Positions 1-32,456 of a stretch of 64,000 bases of DNA are shown one piece after another. Both the position numbers and the translations under genes were made by a program. The DNA is from Macrostomum lignano (taxonomy: Eukaryota), in contig NIVC01000283.1 of the NCBI GenBank assembly GCA_002269645.1, positions 620,001-684,000 of the forward strand, in the 5' to 3' direction. The notes under the pieces were generated by a model, which was not told the DNA's origin, searched no databases, and worked only from the letters and a program-made list of their open reading frames with translations. Position 1 is the first letter of the stretch. Every line of letters starts with the position of its first letter.

Positions 1-3
1 TGA

Positions 4-1525
4 TTGCATCGCAGAGAACAAGGAGAAGTTTGTGTTGATATTAAACAGGATAATTCGGGTAAAGGTGAAGGTTCGAGTGAAGGTAAGATAAGACTGAAGG
101 ATTCATATCAATTTCTAGCTGCCAGTCTAGACGAACTAAGCAAGAATCTGAAAGATGAACAATGTACATATACAAAGATGTTTGCAAGTAAAATTAACAA
201 CAGTGATGAATCATTTAAAATTTTAAGGAAAAAAGGCTTCTACCCCTATGAGAATATTACTGGGTATCACGTATTTAAAGAAGGTTTACCAACACAGGAG
301 AAGTTCTTTTTAAAGCTAACAGACTCTGGAATCTCTGCCAAAGACTATGAGCACGCGAAGCATGTCTATATTTACTTTAATTGCCAAAACTTCTTCCAGT
401 ATCACCTGCTTTACCTCTTCACAGACGTTTTTCTGCTGGCTGATGTGTTGGAACCTTCAGATACACCTGGTACACAGCATATGGCGTCGATCAAGTACAT
501 TGTGTCTCTCCCTACAACTAGCTGGGAATCTTTGCTTAAAATGAAATGGGATCAAGATCCAGATTGGTACATTGAACTTCTTACAGACATTGACATGTAC
601 AATTTTGTCGAATCGTCAAAACGAGAAGGAATCTCAATTTGCGTTAACAGGTATACAAAAGCAAACAATCCCTATATTGAATCTTCCACCTTCCAAATTC
701 CACCAGAGCTTCACGACTATTTCTCTGACTTTCCACCCTTCCCAGAGAACATCAAGTGCCCGAAAATAATCGAAACTCCTAATGGAACTTGTCACCTGTC
801 AGGAACAGAAAAAGAACATACAGAGAAACTAACACAGAATCTAAACAACAAAACACGTTACAAAATCCATTACAAACTGCTTCAGTATTTTATCTCACTT
901 GGTTGCAGGGTCACCAAAGTTCACAGGGCTCTTACATTTACAGAGGAAGCGTGGATGAAACCCTACATTGATAAGAACACCCAGTTTAGGACCAAAGCAA
1001 CCAACGTCTTTGACAAGAACCTCTTTAAGTTGGCCAACAACTCTGTCTATGGCAAGACTCTTGAGAATGAGCGGAAAATAACAAACCTGAAACTTGTTAC
1101 CTCATCAGAGCCTGCTGTTATTCAGGCAAATATGTCAAAGCCAACATTCAAAGAACTCCATATCTTTAATAGCTCATAATTCATTGGTTCATCATAATCA
1201 TCATAGCATCATAATTCATTGGGTTGAGAGCAAAGTCCTATTTTGTAAAATGTGAGTCGACAGACCCAATCAAAAAATCAAAGGGAATTCCGAAACGTGT
1301 GGTTAGGAAGGAAATTAATGAAGCTGAATACAGAGGCGCCTTGAATTGCAAAAAAAGACATCTAATGAGTTCTCAAAGCTACAATCTAAAAACCATATTA
1401 TTCACACAATTCAGCAGAAGAAGATTGGACTGTCAGGTGCAGATAACAAGAGATTCATTTTTGATGACAATATTAACAGTCTACCGTTCGGGCATTGGAG
1501 ATTAGGCTTAGGAGGTGGAGGTTAG
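4..1525 (+). pseudogene. polB: Protein-primed family B DNA polymerase (pPolB), pseudogene
   Basis: Motifs include DSYQFLAASLDELSKNL, KGFYPYE, TDVFLLADV, KLANNSVYGK (motif B) and FIGLRAKSY. After a frameshift at the A-run near 1351-1357 it continues KIGLSGADNKRFIFDDNINSLPFGHW to TAG at 1525. Motifs A and C are deleted. Confidence 0.92.
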
Positions 1526-1620
1526 GTTCGGGAACTGGAGGTTAGATTCGGGCACTGGAGATTAGGAGATTAGGAGATTGGGTTTAGGTTTAAGAGAAAG
1601 TTTAATAAACCTCATAAAAA

Positions 1621-2013
1621 ATGACGACAAATAACTTTGTTGAAGATTTGGCTAACGAACTGGAAATCCCAAACTTTAGAAGAATATTTATGAGGGACAC
1701 TGCCTGATTTTTCTCTAAGAAAAGAATCATGAACTTTGACACCACCGATAAACCAGGATCTCAGTGGGTTTGCTGGGTGATTGATTCCGATCGCAAGCAC
1801 AAGTGTTATTACTTTGATAGCTATGGGACGGCAGTACCAGAAGAGCTAAGAATTTATATGAAGGGGAAAAAGAATAAAAACATTTATCGCTCAGACTTTA
1901 TTCTCCAAGGTCTTAGCAGTGATATTTGCGGTGAGCTGTGCATGACTGTTTTGTATGCAATGACCAAAACACGAAAGACCTACAAGGAAATTATTCTTAC
2001 CTGTGCTTCATAG
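1621..2013 (+). pseudogene. Adenain-like cysteine protease of Polinton, frameshifted
   Basis: ATG at 1621 reads MTTNNFVEDLANELEIPNFRRIFMRDT, then frameshifts into NFDTTDKPGSQWV...YFDSYG...LQGLSSDICGELC. The catalytic His of GSHWV reads Gln. Confidence 0.85.
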
Positions 2014-4486: not shown

Positions 4487-4726
4487 TCACAATTGCCTAA
4501 TGATTTCTGCAAAGTTATAGTAGCTGTCGTAATCTTTTACATAGGTTACTCCATACTTATGAAACCAGTGTCTTTGGAGAGCTAGATTAATATTAGGGAC
4601 ATTGATATGAACGTCGGGCCAATATTTTCTCATGTACTCGCTGCATTTAAGTTTGCATCGGTACTTGGAGTTGTACAATGGATTAGGCTGAGTATAATAA
4701 GAACCTGAAGAGACAACTGGAAACAT
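4487..4726 (-). CDS. Orphan 79-aa Tyr/Lys-rich Polinton accessory protein
   Basis: Intact ORF with ATG in an AAATG context, converging on the penton stop with a 4-bp gap, typical of compact viral genomes. No recognised homology. Confidence 0.45.
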   Translation of the reverse strand: MFPVVSSGSYYTQPNPLYNSKYRCKLKCSEYMRKYWPDVHINVPNINLALQRHWFHKYGVTYVKDYDSYYNFAEIIRQL

Positions 4727-5252
4727 TTATATTGAGAATTTAATTTTTTTCAATGGGTAAGGACCCTGCGCTGATGATTTAAAGTCTTTGGGATCTGGTT
4801 TCGCCGCTTCGCGTTGCGAATCGAATGTGGGGAGAAGAATGCAGATTATTTTCTGATTGTTTCGAAGATGTTATGGGTAGATGTAAGTGGATTATGTAGG
4901 ACACCTGTTATGCTCTGATTCTGTCGTGGAGGAAGGAGGATAGGTTAGGATTATGGATGACGTCCGCTGAGACCTCCGCTAGTCTAGCTATTAAGGCTTA
5001 ATTCAGCGGTTGTAACTGAAAATTGTTCTAAAAATAGCCCAGTCTTAGTCATTTAAAGGCGCTCCGCCTCCCCTCTCCAGCGAAGCTTGTAAGGCCAGAA
5101 GTGTTTAACACTTCCCTTCCCCCATTCCCCGCTCCCCAGGACGTTCGGTCCTACCCTTGAGTGTTGCCTCTTCCCCTTTCTCCCAGAGGAACTGGCGCCC
5201 GCCTCTTCTGCCCTTCCTAGATATTACTTATCACATTGACCATTTTTCAGAC

Positions 5253-5852
5253 ATGGATAGCGACGAGTGCATTGTTTGTTATGAAGACGCTGAACAGTAT
5301 GTCTACTGTCAGCATGGGCATAAGTTCTGCTATAACTGCTGCACAACGGATAGAATAGACAAATGCCCGCTATGCCGCGCACCACCTACCCTGTGCCAGG
5401 TATGCAATACAACACCGCAACAACGGATATGCGACAACGGGCACTGGGTCTGCCGAGATTGTGCCCTAAATATTCGGTGCCGCGACTATAAGCATTGCAT
5501 AACTTGTGCAGCGCCAATATCTAAGGAAATTTACGCCGGAACTACAACATTACCAAAGATCCAACTTACAAAGGAGATCATGGACAGTATGACGGCCAAG
5601 GAACTAGCAACAGCTATAAGAACCTGGCCAATACCATTCAACAAGAGAGACCATTTGGAATATCTTTTTGACTTGGTACGTCAATATGCGGCGCATCCAA
5701 TAAATACTACGAGTACAACTGAAGAGATCTACCTGGAATTCCTCAACGCCACCGAATCAACACAATTTACGCCGATACAGCACTTACTGTGGCCAATCGC
5801 GAGATTGACAACCAAAGTAAACGATATACTGAATGATATGCTTTCCTATTAA
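5253..5852 (+). CDS. Tandem RING-finger protein (putative E3 ubiquitin ligase), 199 aa
   Basis: RING1 is CIVC..CQHGHKFCYNC..CPLC and RING2 is CQVC..CDNGHWVCRDC..CITC. The likely start is ATG 5253, preceded by ttttcag. Confidence 0.85.
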   Translation: MDSDECIVCYEDAEQYVYCQHGHKFCYNCCTTDRIDKCPLCRAPPTLCQVCNTTPQQRICDNGHWVCRDCALNIRCRDYKHCITCAAPISKEIYAGTTTLPKIQLTKEIMDSMTAKELATAIRTWPIPFNKRDHLEYLFDLVRQYAAHPINTTSTTEEIYLEFLNATESTQFTPIQHLLWPIARLTTKVNDILNDMLSY

Positions 5853-5925
5853 CAATAACAATGCATCCTGCCAAGCAACACAATAACAATATGCTTCCTA
5901 AAAAGCAATCTTTCATCACAAAAAA

Positions 5926-5971
5926 CTACTAATACCTACCTATCTACCTATCTATCTACTATACTACTACT
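5926..5971. repeat. Right terminal tip of the Polinton TIR
   Basis: actactaatacctacctatctacctatctatctactatactactact; the reverse complement begins agtagtagtatagtag. Confidence 0.75.
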
Positions 5972-8619
5972 TGTTCAACATTTCTAATCCTTAAATACAT
6001 TTTCATGTTTATTAGAAGTGTGAAACCCCACTTCACCGCTTTAACTTTAAAATTCGGGACGAATTTTTCGTGAAAAGGGGAGATATTGTAGAGAGTTATT
6101 AAACCATACCGTAATGCTCTACTTAAAGTAATATTCTAATGAAGTCAATTTATTTCAAAATGAGTCATATCTATTTTAGGAATCACACGCAAACAGAATG
6201 ATTTAGAACCCTACATTGTTTGATCAAGGAACCGGATTTGAACAGCTGTATTTGTTTAACTCCATATATGGTAATGCTCAAACATGCATGACCGCTTAAT
6301 CAAACATTTTTGACCTAAGTAAATACCCAATCCCAAACCGGTTTTTCTCCAAAATTTTGCTATAAATATAAGTCAAAATTCGAGTCAAAAATTCAGACTC
6401 AGAGCGGTCTCTAAGAAGACTCCGAAGAAATAAGAAGACCAATCTCTGAGGGACCACACCTTTAATTAATTAATTAAATTTAGTTGATTAATTGAGTTTA
6501 CGAGAGCCACTTATTGTCGACACATTTGAGAAAGGCCTCCTTGTTTCCTAGCATACATTCCTAGAGGATTTATTGAATTGAATTGAGTTATCCGTTACGT
6601 TTCGGACGTAACGAAGAAGACGCCCTTTAAGAGGACCTATCACAGAAAATTAGAGAATTCAATTGTTCATTAGGGCGCACGTTCTACTGTTAATTCCGAG
6701 CTCGAGGACCGTGAAGAAGTTCTGATTCGCTCTCGTTTTTGGTCGACCCACAGATAAAAGTCAAGGACTCCCGGAGGTACTGAGTCACCTAAGCCAAACC
6801 AAGAAGCCTACAAGCCACTAAAGGATCCGCTGCAGTAAGTTATTTGAACTGGTAAATACCTAGGCACTTGTTCCCCAGTGTCTGGAAGTGGGAGTTTTGA
6901 GTGACTGATCACCACTCTTAAACTCTTCAATATAGTTAATTATACTGATTTTTTAGTTTAATATTTATTTGTGCATATTTAAAAAAACCTTTTATTAAGG
7001 GAGATCTACTGCTGCCACTGCCAGTGTATCTGCAACAAATAGTCTCCAGCATTTAATGGTTTGTGTGTGCGTAACATAATGCGTTGCGCCATTACCGACA
7101 TCCAGGTTGCTGCTGGTGGCTGCCATTTTGAGACCCTGGCCGCTCTTGTTGCAATGTGTGGTGCAGATATCGGCAGCATCTGACATGGAGCGTAAGTCTA
7201 ACATATTGTATATGTTTTCTCTTTTTATTATTATGAACCTGCTTTAAGTAAGTACCTAACATTTTACAGAGACTTCGGTCGCGAGCTATGGGACCTCTTC
7301 GAAGTCGTTCTCGATCGCAACACCGCCGATTTTCTACGCCGTCCGTTGCCATCCACTGGTCGTCCGCCCAGTTTCTGTATTTCCTGTGACAAAAGCACCC
7401 CTGGTGTGTAAAGGATAATATTAATTATTAAATATACTTAACTTAATTAACAGGTAACAATTTATTCACTATTATTCGCAGGTCGAATCACAAACCAGGC
7501 GGTTCTGCTGCTCAGCAGGTGTGAAACTGGTGACGCCATCGCCATCCCTGCTGGTGCTCCATCAGTTTACGAGAGCGACATGGATGCCACAGGCGGCGCG
7601 TTGGTCAAGCGAATTCTGGACGCTCTGGTTCATTTCAAGCCCCCACTTGAGCATGTAGTTGGGATTGCTGCAGATGGGCAGTACCAGAGTGATCCGTTCA
7701 AAGCTGCAATCCGCCAAGCTCTGCAGGCTGCCGTTCCTAACCTTGAGGCCTATGTTCCGATTAACTGGGACGGCCCACATCTCGTCAGCCTAGCTTTTAA
7801 CGACGTACGGGATGGTGCAGAGGGGGCATCGCGCTGCGCAGATTTATTAAGCGTGCAACATTTTTGCCCATCTGTATGGACATGGTCGTGGATTTGCTGC
7901 TTTGCAGGTAAGTTTCAGTCTCTCACTCAAATTCTTCCACAGTTTAGTTTTACTCCAGACGGACGGAGGATATTCATCTCTTTACCTTCCCCTACTCATC
8001 CACAGAAAGCATCGGAAGATCAATCGAGCAGAACGCGAGTGATCCCTACCAACGCCTTGCAGCGTTTCTTTAGTTCGGCCTTGAAGCAGTGGGACGCCAT
8101 TCTGGCCTCCTACGGCAAGCTGCACTCAGCGTTTGGAGCCGAAAATCCTCGGTGCGGAGTAAATGAGACGTCACAGTATGAGCTATTCGGGAGCGACTTC
8201 GTCATGGAGCTCCTGTGCCTGCTCGACTTGTTTGAGCCATTGCGGGCCTTCATGGCGCTTCTCCAGGACAGCAGTGCGCCGCATTGGAAGGTGGTCACTA
8301 CCTGGAGTGACTGTTGCCGAGTTTCTTGAGCTTCGAGGCAAGGGTTTTGAAAGGTTTGTTAGGAAGCCTTTTTTCTTATGCTAATGTATTCGGTTTAATA
8401 TGACTTCGAGACTTCGTGACTTCACTTCATCTGCTGAGTACAATAAATACTCTGTACTTCAAATCAACATTTCACAGTTCGCACTACCCGCGGTATCACA
8501 AAGTCGCTAAGAACATCGTACCGGACAGTGAGTTTGATGGTGTCACCTTGCTAGAAGGCTGGCTTGTCGAAGTTGCTCCAGACGATATGGCTCCGGCTCC
8601 CCCTGCTGGTCAGTGGCAT

Positions 8620-11600
8620 CAGTGGCGGATCCAGGGGGGGGGGGGGGCGGGGGGGGCGGCCGCCCCCCCACTTTCGCCGTGGCTGGACTTGCATGGAAGG
8701 GAGATATTTTAATTTTGGGCTCCTCAACCCACAAAGTCCAAGTTCTTCATTATATTTCCATTGCTTCTATGGTCTGTCTGCTTTTCCTTGGAATGGAATT
8801 GCATCCCATGGAACATTGTCGGTTCGGTTTTATTTATTTCTAGCCAAACCATTGGCAAGAGAGAAGCTAAGTTAAGTTATGATAGTAAGAGTAGGGTGAG
8901 AGCACAGACCAAGAAAAGAAATATAACTAGACTGCGCATCCCGCATTTCTTGCTTGGGCTTGTTTTTGACCAAATGACAGTGGAAAAAAAGAGACCCCGA
9001 CAAGCTGAGTTGGCTGAGGGTAAGAAGAAAGGCCCGGGCACAATTATCGATCGTGGGGGAGTGGGCGCTGGGGTGCCACTTTTCCTACTAGGAAAAAGGC
9101 ACAACTTTTTTTACCCTCATGCGCAGTCTAGTTATATTTCTTGGTCTGTGGGTGAGAGAGACACTGAGACTCTGAGAGAGACTTGGGGTGGGGGAATGGA
9201 ATGAAAAGGGGTTGAAAGGCTTTTCCTCCCCCATTTTGGGGTTCAGACTTGAGAGCAATGTACATTGCGTCAATGCGTCTTGCGAAAACCAGCGAAAGCT
9301 TAACAGCCTGCTACAAAGGACAAATAGTTTGAGCCAGTCCCGGCTATCTGTCTACACTCAACACCAATTGAACTTGAAGTCCGTAAAATCCATTTGGCAA
9401 GTCTTAACATATGATGCACAAATTCACAATCACGAAGAATGAAGCGAGCATCTTCTCCATTAGAGCGTGACGCAAAGCGACAAAAATTGCTAACGCACTT
9501 TTTTGTTACACCACCTGGTCCTGCCACTGCTGCTGCAAAGTTATCTGCTGCTTCTACTGCTGCTGAGATCCGATTCATTTCTTCTTCTGCTGCTCCTGCT
9601 GCTGCTGCCACTGCTGAGAGACCTAGTTCTTCTGCTGTTGCTGTTTCGGAACAATTTGCTACAACTTGTACTCGTAATTCAGACGAAGCTGAAGCCGGCA
9701 CCTCTGAATGCGATGCCGAGTTCAATGGAGATACCAGAGAAGCCAATGAAGTACAAGTGAGCAAGTTGTCTGACTTTGACATAGGTCTATTCGATCCTGC
9801 TGCTGACAGTGCCACTAAGATAGCCTTCCTGACGCAAACGTGGGAGCCCCCAGTTCCTACCCAATGCCATTTGAAGAGCGAAAGACAAAGGGCAAAATAG
9901 AAAAGAGATTCCTGAGGCACAGTCATCTAGCCGACAAACCCTGGTTAGCATACTCACATGTAAAGAGTGGCTTGTTCTGCAAAGTTTGTGTGCTATTTGG
10001 TACTCAGCAAGGGCAACAAGGTCACCAATTGGGAAGACTAGTTCATGAGCCGTTGCAAAAGTACGCAAGACTCTTGGGAGCAGATGGCTATCTCTGCGCT
10101 CACGAGCATACCAACTACCACAAAGACAATGTACTGAGAGCACAGGAGTTCAAGCGAATGGTGCCAGAACAGCACATTGACAGTCGATTGGCAACACAGA
10201 GGCAGGAGCAGATTGCAAAGAACAGGCATATCCTCAGCTCCATTGTGCGTGCCATCCTAGTCTGTGGAAGGAGTGGCTCTGCTCTCAGGGGACACCGAGA
10301 CGATCATGGTGTGCTAGAGACTGCCGACCGACCTGGCCAGAATGATGGTCTCTTTCGAGAGATCCTGCGAGCAATGGTGGACACAGGAGACAAGAGGCTA
10401 GAGGAGCATCTGCGCTCTGGACCCGGCAACGCTAAGTACACCAGCAAGACGATTCAGAATGAGCTGATCGAGTGCATTGGAGAAGTGATTCTGGACCGCC
10501 TGAAGGAGCGGATAAACAATGCACAGTTTGTGTCCATCCTGGCTGATGAAACAACAGACCAGGCCACAAAGGAGCAGCTGACAGTATGTGTTCGCTATGT
10601 GTTTGATGGAGCAATTTGTGAAGACTTTCTGGGATTCACCATTGCAGAGGACATGACTGGAGCGGGACTTGCGAGGAACATTCTGTCCCAGTTCGTCACT
10701 CTCGGCATTCTCTTGGAAGGGCGGCTGGTGGGATTGGGATTTGATTGTGCCAGTGCGATGAGCGGCAAGTTCAAGGGAGCTCAAGCAATAATCAGAGAAG
10801 AGCACCCCATCGCCATCTACATTCATTGTGCTGCGCATCAACTCAATCTGGTCATCAGCAAGAGCAGCGAAGTCCCTGGCATCAGAAATACGTGGGGAAA
10901 CATCCAAGAGCTGGCGAAGTTCTTCAACAGTTCTGCTCAGAGAGTGAAGTGTCTGGAGGACATAGTGAAGTCACAGAACCATCAGGCCAATACCCGTCGA
11001 GTGAAGAACCTATGCGACACTCGCTGGATTGAAAGACACGATGCGGTTCTAACAACAAGACATCTACTGATACCAATCGTGCAAGCTCTTGAAGAAGTTC
11101 GCGAGCATTCCAACCCAGAAGCATCCAGAAATGCAAAAGCTCTGCTTAATTCGATGGACGCAGAGTTTCTGGTATCAATCGTGGTTCTGGATGTAACTTT
11201 GACTCTCACCAAGGGATTGGCAGAAGCTCTCCAGAAGTGTGCAATAGATTTGCTAAGCGCCAGGTTTCTAATTGCGGATGTGCAAGAGCAACTGCAGAAG
11301 TGGCGGGAAGAGTCTGCAGAGAAGTTCAGTGAGCTCTGGGAGAAGATTCTAGAGACTGCAGAGGCAATTGAAATCGACTTGACTCCTCCTAGGCGAGTTG
11401 CGCGTCAAACGAATCGTGCCAATCTTCCTACTACTGATCCCAAGGACTACTGGCGTTTGACAATCTTTGTTCCCTTCTTGGATGGACTACTGGTCAACCT
11501 GCAAGACCGATTTGCACGCCTTTCTGACGTTGCTTCTGGACTCAGTGCCCTTATCCCAGCAACAGCCAAGAAGCATGCAAATCCATTCATTCAGCTCAAG

Positions 11601-12440
11601 CCATCAATGCAGCACTTTGCTTCAGTTCTGCCAAGCCAGGAGCAAGAGGAGGTTGAAGCAGAATTTAACCAGTGGATGCGACTCTGGCAAAGGGAGGATC
11701 CACAGAAATGGCCCACAACTTTGACTAAGACAATCTTGGAGTGCGACCATAGCCTGTTTCCCAACATCAGCACTCTCTTGAACATTTACGCAACGCTGCC
11801 TGTCTCCACTGCCACTGGAGAAAGATCCTTCTCTTCGCTGAAGTTCCTAAAGAATTACTTGCGCAGCACCATGGGAGAAGAGCGGCTGAATGGACTGGCA
11901 TTGGCCTTCATCCACAAGGACATGATTTGTAATACTGCAAGTACAATATATGCAACTGTGGAGAAGTTTCTGTCAAAGGATGTCAATCGCCGTGCCTGCT
12001 TCAATTAAGTGATTCCAATTCGTTAATTCCAATTTCCATTCTTCTACGCTCTATTTGCTACTAACAATTGCTTATTCGCGTCTCACTGCAACACGTACAT
12101 TCTATTCAAATTTCAAATTAAAATATTATAGTGTTGGTCTTCTCACATTGTCATTGACTTTCTTTTAAATGAAGCCTTGATAACTCACTAAATATAATTG
12201 TCAATATTGGCCAAAATGGGTTAGTTCTTCCCGAGACCCGAGCCAACTTCTACTACTACCCTCATTTGTCAGAGTCATTTGCACCACTCTAGGCATTAAA
12301 ATGTATGCAAAAATTGATATATCCTCTCAAGATCTTGTATTGAGCATAGATGAAAGATAGATGGATTGGGATTACTTAGTTTCTAGTTTCTGTACTCGCA
12401 TATCCGCCACCCCACTTAAGAAATCCTGGATCCGCCACTG
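8620..12440 (+). mobile_element. Full-length hAT DNA transposon, 3821 bp
   Basis: Perfect 16-bp TIRs CAGTGGCGGATCCAGG (8620-8635 and 12425-12440) and a perfect 8-bp TSD AGTGGCAT (8612-8619 and 12441-12448). Confidence 0.97.
9439..12008 (+). CDS. hAT transposase (ZMYM1/PRKRIR-like: TTF zinc finger, DUF4371, hATC dimerisation) with one frameshift near 9847-9851
   Basis: WLAYS..GLFCKVC (TTF zinc finger), SILADETTD, GFDCASAM, IHCAAHQLNL, CDTRWIERH, LPVSTATGERSFSSLK. ORF 9439-9900 and ORF 9840-12008 join as WEPPSSYPMPF if one C is added. Confidence 0.93.
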
Positions 12441-14416: not shown

Positions 14417-15779
14417 GCTGTCAATCATTCCACTGACTTTATCTGTGAATTACCTAAATTCATTAGTTGTATTCGAGAATACAACTCTTAATATAATGTA
14501 AGCATTATAAAACGTTTAGCTGCATCTGCAATCGCCACTTACCTAATGATTTGCTCTAGTAGCTGTACTAGGGACCTGTGTATATGAGACAAAGTCTGTT
14601 TCGTTGCTGCCGTGCGCAAGAAGCTTTTAAAATGTATATAACTTCTTTTCTAGACGACCAGAGCTTCCCTCTCTCGTCTCCTTCGCCCTCCCTCAGCCTC
14701 GGTTGGGTGAGTGAAAAGTTGAAAGCCCCCCTCCCACCCAAGTGTACACTGGGCTAAGTACACTCCCGCCCTCCGCGCTCTTCTGTGTCTCTTAAAAAAT
14801 CGATAGACAAAGCCCAGACGCCCGCCTTTCCAGTCACCCGACGACAACCGGCTAGCCGGGCCAAAAGCTTACAAAATCATCGGGCTAACCGGCAGGAAAG
14901 CGCGCTCTCGAGCTCTCGCTTTTCCCGGCTAGACGGGCCCAAAGCGCGCTCCCATACAATCAAATGGGAGTGTATCAATTGAAAGCTTTCACGGGTGTTT
15001 AATAACAATTTGCAGTAGAAAAATCGACGTTTGTTAATATTAATTCGCTTGCATGTAATTTGAAAACAAAATTTACAGGAATGAGCTAAGGTTCCTGTGT
15101 TCAACGTTCAACAAAAGCTTTTAAGGCATATTTGTTGTGCTACTGTGCATTGCTGTGCTGGCCTATGCACTAGACTGAACAAGTGAAGGCTTCGTGTACA
15201 AGATAAATGAAAGGAGCTTTTCTTAAATTTCTTGTGCATTATTATGTGATTGCTTGAGTAATTTTTTTCTATAGTTTTAAAGCCTGTCACGTGTCAGTTA
15301 ATTAATAATACAGGCATTTGAAATATAAATGTAGGTCTAATATTATGAGAAGTAACTTATAAGCTGCTTTTATTCAATTATAAAAAGGCTTCAATTCAAT
15401 TAAATTCTATTATTTAGCTATAGCCCTGTGTGTACGAAAGCCTATTGAGCACTAAGCCTAGGCCTAGCTTATTGACTTGGCCTTAATGAATAGATTTAGC
15501 TAACTTACTAGCAATCTAGTGCGGCCCCCCTTCGGGGCGCCCAATAAGAAAGGAGCAAAAATAGTTCATGGAAAACAATAAAAAAACACATTTTCTTAAA
15601 CATTAATTCCTTCTTCACATTTTAAAAATCACCTTATTCGTGTAAAATTGTCACAGACTAAGATGTTTGCAAAATTAAAAAATCACTTTTTCTCTAAAAT
15701 TAACAAACAGTCAACAAAATATCGTTTCACTAAATAGAAAATATTCCCAAGACAGCAAGCAACCCCCTCCAAAAGTGAA

Positions 15780-31000: not shown

Positions 31001-32166
31001 GGAAGCCACGGGTCAGGAGGGAGGGAAGCCACGGGTCAGGAGGAGGGAAGCCAGGGGTCAGGAGGGAGGGAAGCCACGGGTCAGGAGGAGGGAAGCCAGG
31101 GGTCAGGAGGGAGGGAAGCCACGGGTCAGGAGGAGGGAAGCCAGGGGTCAGGGGGAGAGAAGCCACGGTCAGGGGAAGGAAGCCAGGGTCAGGGGGAGAG
31201 AAGCCAGGGGTCAGTAAGGAGAAAAGCCAGGGCCAGGCAGAGAGAAGCCAGGGTCAGGGGAGAGAAGCCAGGATCAGGGGAGGGAAGCCAGGGTCAGGGG
31301 GAGAGAAGCCAGGGTCAGAGGAAGGAAGCCAGGGTAAGGGGAGAGAAGCCAGGGTCAGGGGATGGAAGCCAGGGTCAGGGGAGGGAAGACAGGGTCAGGG
31401 GAAGGAAGCCAGGGTCAGGGGGAGAAGCCAGAGTCAGGGGAGAGAAGCCAGGGTCAAGGGAGGGAAGCCAGGGTCAAGGGAGGGAAGCCAGGGTCAGGGG
31501 AGAGAAGCCAGGGTCAGGGGAGGGAAGCCAGGGTCAGGGGGAGAGAAGCCAGGGTCAGAGGAAGGAAGCCAGGGTAAGGGGAGAGAAGCTAGGTTTAGAG
31601 GGAGGAAATCCAAGGTTAGGGGAGAGGGGAACTAAGGAAAGGAAAATAAGTCAAACATCAGGTATTTGATATAAAATATTGTAGGCTTAGTTTTATAGTT
31701 TGTTATTTAGTCAAAGGCCTATTGGTATACATAAAGATTAAAGTAGATAGATAAAAAAACAAAATTTTAAGGCTCTTATCTAGTAAGTTAGCTAAATCTA
31801 TTCATTAAGGCCAAGTCAATAAGCTAGGCCTAGGCTTAGTGCTCAATAGGCTTTCGTACACATAGGGCTATAGCTAAATAATAGAATTTAATTGAATTGA
31901 AGCCTTTTTATAATTGAATAAAAGCAGCTTATAAGTTACTTCTCATAATATTAGACCTACATTTATATTTCAAATGCCTGTATTATTAATTAACTGACAC
32001 GTGACAGGCTTTAAAACTATAGAAAAAAATTACTCAAGCAATCACATAATAATGTACAAGAAATTTAAGAAAAGCTCCTTTCATTTATCTTGTACACGAA
32101 GCCTTCACTTGTTCAGTCTAGTGCATAGGCCAGCACAGCAATGCACAGTAGCACAACAAATATGCC
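28087..32166 (+). repeat. Tandem duplication of ~2 kb (28087-30184 and 30190-32166)
   Basis: Both copies run from gcaatttaatatatgaagctcc to cacaacaaatatgcc and differ by a few indels. Confidence 0.93.
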
Positions 32167-32456
32167 TTAAAAGCTTTTGTTGAACGTTGAACACAGGAAC
32201 CTTAGCTCATTCCTGTAAATTTTGTTTTCAAATTACATGCAAGCGAATTAATATTAACAAACGTCGATTTTTCTACTGCAAATTGTTATTAAACACCCGT
32301 GAAAGCTTTCAATTGATACACTCCCATTTGATTGTATGGGAGCGCGCTTTGGGCCCGTCTAGCCGGGAAAAGCGAGAGCTCGAGAGCGCGCTTTCCTGCC
32401 GGTTAGCCCGATGATTTTGTAAGCTTTTGGCCCGGCTAGCCGGTTGTCGTCGGGTG
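31784..32456. repeat. Inverted copy of 14835-15507
   Basis: Near-identical reverse complement; identical small ORFs appear in the track (15108-15290 vs 32001-32183, 14877-15104 vs 32187-32414). Confidence 0.95.

Follow-up and report, generated by a model that had tools for sequence, protein, structure and literature searches.

GAG-ENV-POL errantiviruses of the HSV/gB type have been described in Platyhelminthes, Nematoda and Bryozoa (PMC13524379), and one row of the supplement to that study, Platyhelminthes_Rhabditophora_Mlig_errantivirus_2, represents a single element of Macrostomum lignano with a long terminal repeat (LTR) of 863 nt. The giant planarian gypsy element Burro/GYPSM1 has an env that is read in one frame with gag and pol and placed between them; it additionally contains AIR1, MATH/TRAF, BIR, BCL2 and ubiquitin-like domains, which reside in a ~4,900-aa ORF1 or an upstream ORF of the 30-kb element and were proposed to meddle with host systems (PMC6431247, section 7). 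Accessory genes downstream of pol are known from other lineages. In C. elegans, Cer1 has a cysteine-rich ORF behind pol, CERV, which is expressed by splicing and required to export RNA; this single gene encodes an export factor of 517 aa with a C4-type loop, and the sections of PMC10309623 that cover it do not present it as a RING ligase. Furthermore, bdelloid LTR elements with a captured ORF3 (PMC5408684) and plant elements with aORFs (PMC7264820) contain extra post-pol ORFs that are exchanged between families, and their cargo is described as env-like, GDSL or DEDDy.

The terms RING, accessory and ubiquitin are absent from the main text of PMC13524379, as are RING, zinc and ubiquitin from its text supplements. 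RING and ubiquitin are likewise absent from the main text of PMC5408684 and PMC7264820, and RING from the accessible text of PMC12801592, PMC8502044 and PMC13269885. The element type treated here is published, and its RING accessory cassette is previously unremarked in the literature covered; no report of an errantivirus RING cassette was found in the open literature, and an earlier mention may exist.

Relationship of the locus to described elements

We analysed a 64,000-nucleotide stretch of the M. lignano contig NIVC01000283.1 (positions 620,001 to 684,000 of the forward strand; hereafter the window, to which coordinates refer unless stated otherwise). It contains a tandem-RING gene, here called RING-B, which is almost certainly the second accessory gene of an env-bearing gag-env-pol Ty3/gypsy element whose 3' fragment lies in the window. 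This element shares with the errantiviruses of PMC13524379 the gag-env-pol gene order, an apparently gB/Monjiviricetes-like env and young multi-copy insertions. Reverse-complemented, the primer binding site (PBS) given for Mlig_errantivirus_2 in the supplement equals that of the copies C717, C583, C282, C1639 and C2121, and its 863-nt LTR fits the C282/C1639/C2121 families, a comparison of length and PBS with the sequences unaligned. In contrast, a cassette of two to three RING genes with a splice has no counterpart described in the text of PMC13524379. The nearest precedent is Burro/GYPSM1, which, as outlined in PMC6431247, is likewise a flatworm gypsy element combining a gag-env-pol frame with domains related to ubiquitination and apoptosis. 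Unlike Burro as described there, the RING element is 11.3-12.5 kb long and encodes stand-alone tandem-C3HC4 genes 3' of integrase that are subject to paralog turnover.

The RING-B gene and its predicted product

RING-B occupies positions 5253..5852 (+) and encodes 199 amino acids in a stop-free frame, as expected from the original prediction of a lesion-free ORF; the assignment of RING1, RING2 and a helical tail rests on the ORF, Pfam matches, a structural model and sister copies. The two consecutive C3HC4 RINGs that had been read from the sequence, both with the spacing C-x-x-G-H-x-x-C, are confirmed at residues C6-C41 and C48-C85, with a Pfam match to zf-C3HC4_3 (E 5e-8) above the cut-off. 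A match to Sina_RING (E 8e-5, 23.1 bits) falls below its cut-off of 29.3 bits in RING-B itself; the same profile matches 19 of 22 family members at E < 0.01, some paralogs passing the cut-off. An AlphaFold2 model built from the 22-member alignment (mean pLDDT 89.9, pTM 0.80) reproduces the proposed tail, which is modelled as all-helical. Zinc ligands, spacing and predicted fold are accordingly those of C3HC4 RINGs, as far as the model goes.

In RING1, which together with R42 spans 5268..5378 (+), the ligands C6, C9, C19, H23, C26, C29, C38 and C41 are invariant among the 22 members, as is R42 directly after the RING1 CPxC (22/22). The remaining residues of a putative E2 site are also largely kept, with V or I at position 8 in 18 and P39 in 21 of the 22. 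We take V/I8, P39 and R42 to correspond to the E2-binding and activating residues of RING-E2~Ub complexes, and because of this match RING1 is the predicted catalytic RING. RING2 (5394..5507, +) has invariant C48, C51, C60, H64 and C82; the places that match the E2-site residues of RING1 are variable and contain no conserved arginine. RING1 thus appears to possess both the hydrophobic residues and the arginine after the last CPxC that are characteristic of E2-binding RINGs, and RING2 does not. The helical tail (5568..5849, +) contains an invariant W125-P126 in the alignment and is the predicted substrate- or partner-binding part.

Structural comparisons of the RING-B model returned matches confined to its parts. 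RING1 superposes on the RINGs of IDOL, BIRC7 and XIAP at 1.7-2.5 A over 42-47 residues, none with E < 0.001, and a Foldseek search of RING-B against PDB and viral structures likewise gave nothing with E < 0.001. VIA-align detected no structure at Z >= 8 for the RING-B model; RING2 matched the Nse1 RING at Z 4.9, and the best match of the tail, taken within the whole-protein model, was an unspecific Z 5.8. The best PDB sequence match had an E value of 0.016, a word-based protein search yielded none among 30 candidates, and the best ESM Atlas match (0.85), to giant-virus clusters, is a lead only.

Sina/SIAH ligases resemble RING-B in RING spacing and differ in the rest of the protein: they combine their RING with zinc fingers and a beta-sandwich substrate-binding domain, whereas RING-B has a second RING and an all-helical tail, an architecture that places it outside the Sina/SIAH family, and no Pfam match to the SIAH substrate-binding domain was obtained in RING-B. 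Against host SIAH RINGs in the same genome (G000), RING1 shows 41% identity across 41 residues. As this similarity is confined to a single RING of 41 residues, it does not establish that the RING genes descend from host SIAH. Separately, G000 contains repeated Sina-RING-like matches on C210, C1491 and C2920, which form three parallel clusters; the three loci of these clusters that were screened (L152-L154) contain no match to element genes.

A profile search of 1.84 billion representatives gave 283 matches at E 0.001 and four at 1e-30 (P0002-P0005), whose alignments span both RINGs and the tail. P0003, P0004 and P0005, along with P0006 and P0019, are divergent homologs from Logan contigs. P0003 clusters with RING-A, a second type of RING gene introduced below, which hints at an A/B split predating the families of M. 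lignano; the deep joins of this tree have long branches and were not relied on. A UniRef entry of M. lignano is 99% identical over 198 residues to the RING-B of C1639. P0002, a UniRef host protein annotated as 'RING-type domain', turned out to be a patchwork of translated element LTRs and RING-B genes.

The retroelement carrying the RING cassette

Positions 5219-6929 of the window represent the 3' end of a Ty3/gypsy LTR element and comprise the RING gene, a polypurine tract (PPT; 6072..6082, +) and a 3' LTR (6087..6929, +). The PPT lies directly before the LTR here and in all six elements compared; the LTR, delimited by comparison with sister copies, has the termini TGTA...TTCA, a TATA box at 6361 and a private deletion near 6463-6481. 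All 13 sister loci align with the window only from position 5219 and at most to ~6930, the LTR end. The fragment therefore starts with 5219..5250 (+), likely the 3' end of an intron with its acceptor AG at 5249-5250, as indicated by the 13 sister alignments and a contig joint discussed below.

A search of G000 in which 150 of 181 candidates were scored returned at least 125 RING-gene matches on 50 contigs. RING-B of the window is 95-96% identical to copies inside LTR elements. Of 14 copies at 95% identity or more, 11 are open and full length, one has a stop and two are truncated, and the intactness that had seemed special to this locus is therefore commonplace. The window holds only a 3' LTR, so paired LTRs and target site duplications are observed in the sister copies: all six have two 917-bp LTRs and a 4-bp target duplication, each at a site of its own. 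LTR pair identity is 99.0-100% in C717, C583, C391, C282, C1639 and C2121. Sister copies also show a PBS, a PPT and the order PR-RT-RH-IN that defines Ty3/gypsy elements; of these features the PPT is also found in the window.

In C717, 11.3 kb lie between LTRs that are 99.1% identical and flanked by a 4-bp target duplication. A single frame of 2503 codons encodes a gag zinc knuckle, an env-like region, PR, RT, RH and IN, and is followed by RING-A, RING-B, the PPT and the LTR; RING-A is about 22% identical to RING-B of the window. The env-like region is situated between zinc knuckle and protease, which is the arrangement of the GAG-ENV-POL HSV/gB errantiviruses, and contains an RHKR site, a hydrophobic segment and a Monjiviricetes_fusion match at residues 965-1092 (Pfam E 3e-4), which at 19.4 bits is below the cut-off of 27. 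C717 and C583 additionally contain a PPPY motif (L033:1457-8965, residue 590) between gag and the env signal-like segment, which is absent from that place in the other three polyprotein frames read.

Other families, with RT 78-100% identical, encode two or three RING genes at the same place. Every whole element examined has one RING-A in the first slot, and the number and paralog of the RING genes in slots 2-3 vary between elements. A survey of 73 RING cassettes on 34 of the 50 contigs with matches found an integrase end at most 600 bp upstream in 41 and a family LTR at most 900 bp downstream in 55, with one or the other beside 60. Neither marker accompanies the remaining 13, five of which lie at the edge of the analysed DNA, the rest being fragments.

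Deletion derivatives of the element were also detected. One of 6.9 kb is present in five copies, each at its own site (C352, C1192, C2869, C525 and C301); the stretch from PR through most of IN is deleted, gag and the two RING genes are retained, and the N-terminal part of env is fused in frame to the integrase C-terminus. The joint of this derivative also occurs in the sequencing runs X5, X10 and X15. In another derivative, on C70 (L160), 100% identical LTRs 2.3 kb apart enclose gag only and no RING genes, so that the element does not depend on the RING cassette in cis. Pairs of LTRs with the same spacing also occur at C1130:134486-137702 and C3022:7563-10777. Dense clusters at C2121:1-70000, C1130:1-50000 and C87:226000-286000 and on C272, C4009 and C1405 bring together copies from several families with RING genes, some whole, others nested or truncated, and almost all in one orientation; they resemble piRNA-cluster or insertion-hotspot arrays. 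A second gag-env-pol family, only distantly related (RT 36% identical, LTRs 99.9%), is inserted in a RING-bearing copy at C1405:256064-269953; it has 2.7 kb between integrase and 3' LTR with no RING match, and may encode other accessory genes.

Repeats adjoining the element fragment

The original prediction placed RING-B inside a viral element of the Polinton type, possibly within its terminal inverted repeat (TIR). A Polinton remnant does precede the gene by 290 bp. Its broken PolB and protease (1..2013, +) were recognized by Pfam and sister loci, and the PolB has a gap relative to the latter, so that the description of neighbouring genes as wrecked holds for these two; the labels 'penton' and 'hydrophobic gene' could not be confirmed, the frames concerned having no Pfam match or only coiled-coil matches under the cut-off. 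The right TIR of the remnant (4489..4963), identified by its match to the left TIR, is 98.7% identical to the latter at L031 4828-5302. The left terminus is located at L031 4549, about 5.4 kb before the window, and no right terminus motif of the Polinton was found within the window. As the right TIR is cut off at 4963, the gene lies neither in the TIR nor in the Polinton, and the supposed contrast between an intact RING gene and wrecked Polinton genes compares two unrelated elements.

The stretch between the TIR and the element fragment (4962..5217, +) matches 39 other places at 73-85%. Its relatives form paired 0.95-1.07 kb LTRs around RT-RH-IN at three of three loci, and the RT-RH-IN of this family is 28-35% identical to that of the RING element (RT 34-35%). 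The GC-rich region that had been read as a GC-box-rich upstream region exists, but it belongs to an LTR fragment of this unrelated Ty3/gypsy family; it is not the native upstream region of the RING gene, and a GC-box promoter was discarded on these grounds. The TATA-like box of the relatives' LTRs is missing from 4962-5217. As judged by sequence comparison, then, three unrelated repeats meet at this point: a Polinton TIR, a foreign gypsy LTR piece and the RING element.

Selection and exchange of RING genes

Pairwise Nei-Gojobori counts, several with saturated or undefined dS, were used to compare the constraint on element genes. In eight element pairs, dN/dS is 0.01-0.10 for RT, 0.03-0.05 for IN, 0.05-0.08 for env and 0.07-0.09 for gag, compared with 0.10-0.24 for RING-A and 0.17-0.38 for RING-B. 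Twelve RING pairs with dS of 0.05-1.5 range from 0.17 to 0.56, the two highest values being across clades near saturation. No between-family pair exceeds 1, and there is no direct sign of positive selection. The RING genes thus appear to be under purifying selection between families (dN/dS about 0.1-0.4); because their dN/dS is below 1 yet above that of pol, they seem to be kept as proteins that change several times faster than pol.

Backbone and cassette do not share the same history. C717 and C2129 are 100% identical in RT, with slot-2 RING-B proteins 37% identical, and C282 and C240 combine 100% identical RT with 60% identity in slot 2. Between C240 and C1130, dS is 0.04-0.08 in pol (RT 0.08) as against 0.86-1.01 in the RING cassette. 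This mismatch points to recombination and differential paralog loss, by which RING genes would be exchanged as modules.

The copy in the window is one of 12 full-length copies compared and shows five private ORF changes, four nonsynonymous and one synonymous (sites 460:137), which corresponds to about 0.8% in the ORF versus about 0.9% in the LTR. The LTR belongs to a subfamily mostly of solo LTRs and has 14 private letters, six of them around one deletion; apart from the deletion, about eight private letters remain in 843 bases. An older copy with a protected ORF, suggested by 51 private LTR substitutions versus five in the ORF, was considered and vanished with 11 more LTRs of the subfamily. 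The pattern fits neutrality, and the window copy would thus be drifting; five changes are too few to exclude recent selection. With so few private changes, its open frame is expected by chance, and because the drift looks neutral there is no sign of co-option. Taken alone, the window copy appears to be an ordinary drifting fragment among unrelated repeats.

Expression and splicing

Contigs of four sequencing runs were compared with 10 kb of the C717 copy at a 90% likeness setting; none of the runs is on record as RNA, X1 and X10 being guessed to be RNA and X15 being DNA-like. One X10 contig (depth 10.9) connects L114 583, within the 5' LTR, with 9342; the 8758 bases left out between them have GT..AG ends. 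The short side of this joint comprises 29 letters, under the tool's bar of 31. Position 9342 lies two bases before the RING-B ATG and matches window 5250/5251, the donor is GAA|gtaagt and the acceptor ttttcag|ACATG. The ttttcag noted before the ATG as a possible cis- or trans-splice acceptor ends at 5250, and the X10 contig points to cis-splicing, by one contig only. The donor used in the 5' LTR of the sister copy matches window LTR 6834/6835, and no ATG precedes it in L114 1-583. The LTR-to-RING-B joint was found in one of the four runs and not in X1, X5 or the DNA-like X15, and all 13 genomic sisters retain the intron end. In all nine slot-2 RING genes, not all independent, a YAG lies with its end 0-9 nt ahead of the ATG, whereas none of five slot-3 genes has one within 40 nt of it; the joints listed include no splice into RING-A. 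GTAAGT occurs 92-99 nt from the LTR end in three of five families. On the strength of this one contig, RING-B is likely cis-spliced from the element's own 5' LTR.

In run X1, 0.92 of the words sampled from 5219-6100 are present, of which any one sister supplies at most 0.51 and the 13 together 0.71. Over the ORF, one X1 contig departs from C717 at 11 positions (the window does so at 13) and stops precisely where the window has its breakpoint. As the X1 words exceed what the sisters supply, the window copy or a close allele is present in this run, guessed to be RNA; such presence does not show function.

Proposed role and alternative explanations

In whole copies of the element, splicing from the 5' LTR would give a subgenomic RNA for the translation of RING-B, whose protein, a predicted RING E3 ligase, would ubiquitinate a host factor that restricts the element. 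RING1 is predicted to use R42 and its conserved hydrophobic site to bind E2~Ub, and RING2 and the variable helical tail may choose the target, possibly a host silencing, antiviral or cell-death factor. Ligase activity is probable from sequence features, and given such activity a counter-defence role seems fairly likely. The complete explanation, an env-bearing gypsy accessory gene with a spliced message that encodes a predicted counter-defence E3 ligase, we hold to be somewhat likely. The earlier suggestion of a viral host-manipulation effector therefore remains plausible, with an env-bearing Ty3/gypsy element in place of a Polinton as its source.

Herpesvirus ICP0 and baculovirus IE2 and PE38 are viral ligases with one RING, and lentiviral Vif, Vpu and Vpr recruit host ligases and have no RING. 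RING-B is predicted to act like these proteins in directing ubiquitin to host restriction factors. Its fold matches to ICP0 and giant-virus RINGs are weak and restricted to the RING, none with E < 0.001, and no homology to viral ligases was found outside the RING. To our knowledge, few counter-defence proteins of animal LTR retrotransposons are known. If the RING proteins are E3 ligases as predicted, identifying their substrates would reveal which host factors restrict these elements, and a RING cassette that is conserved and exchangeable in young multi-copy enveloped gypsy elements offers a direct handle, in a flatworm host already amenable to RNAi and transgenesis. The idea of meddling with ubiquitination raised for Burro is thereby extended to small, stand-alone, assayable genes. 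More tentatively, we hypothesize that one clade of flatworm errantiviruses may have become complex retroviruses with their own predicted ligases, whose two to three tandem-RING genes would be expressed from spliced subgenomic RNAs, shuffled between families and used to destroy proteins of host silencing or antiviral defence, for example those of the Piwi pathway.

The RING proteins could instead serve the element's own cycle, in exporting unspliced RNA, the function of CERV in Cer1, or in the turnover or sorting of Gag and Env. The spliced, cysteine-rich post-pol ORF described in PMC10309623 is a precedent for such a function, and the constant RING-A in the first slot of whole elements as well as dN/dS values below 1 would agree with it. 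Nevertheless, this seems unlikely, as slots 2-3 vary and swap between near-identical backbones, to which a changing host target would be better suited. In C717 and C583, moreover, the PPPY motif might act as a late domain and bring in a host ligase for budding; the other three frames lack it at that place. Fast change and paralog exchange would accordingly be a better fit to a host-defence target than to a fixed partner within the element, which is fit, not proof. It is improbable that the RING proteins are catalytically silent decoys or scaffolds blocking E2s, host SIAH or IAP-type ligases. The likeness of RING1 to host SIAH RINGs, the missing Pfam SIAH substrate-binding domain and the lack of a conserved arginine in RING2 are compatible with such a function. 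A decoy would also need the E2 site, but the arginine after the last CPxC has a role in E2~Ub activation, and its invariance in RING1 (22/22) would most simply reflect selection for catalysis.

Two further explanations concern the window copy itself. The proposal that it was retained or co-opted by the host, driven by the foreign LTR piece 4962-5217, draws on its open frame and on the X1 words and contig, which place it or a close allele in a run guessed to be RNA. We regard this as very improbable: private changes of 4 N : 1 S at a rate equal to that of the LTR, a frame expected to be open by chance and an LTR piece without the TATA-like box of its relatives argue against it, and no contig was seen joining 4962-5218 to the ORF. 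That RING-B is Polinton cargo in or near the TIR, as its proximity to the remnant suggested, has practically no probability left. The 35 kb spanning both Polinton TIRs (C283:600001-635000, which holds the left TIR) yield one RING match, RING-B itself, so the left TIR contains no second copy. When the best 40 of 1086 candidates were scored for the same Polinton segment, the 14 other loci all proved free of RING matches within 1.5 kb on either side, and all 13 close sister loci of RING-B share the LTR-element context. The preferred reading thus remains an accessory gene of an env-bearing gypsy element with a predicted counter-defence ligase as its product.

Other repeats in and around the window

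C255 (L045) and C538 (L047/L048) contain the two other 5'-truncated close copies of the RING element, which are also near apparent Polinton debris (C255 by eye). Further downstream, the window encodes an open 729-codon hAT transposase frame at 9819-12008 (+) with DUF4371 and hAT dimerisation domains, and a further remnant resembling a transposase lies at 7451-8329. The region 16100-64000 contains numerous tandem arrays whose units measure 8-33 bp, and a perfect inverted pair of 677 bp is located at 14835-15511 and 31780-32456.
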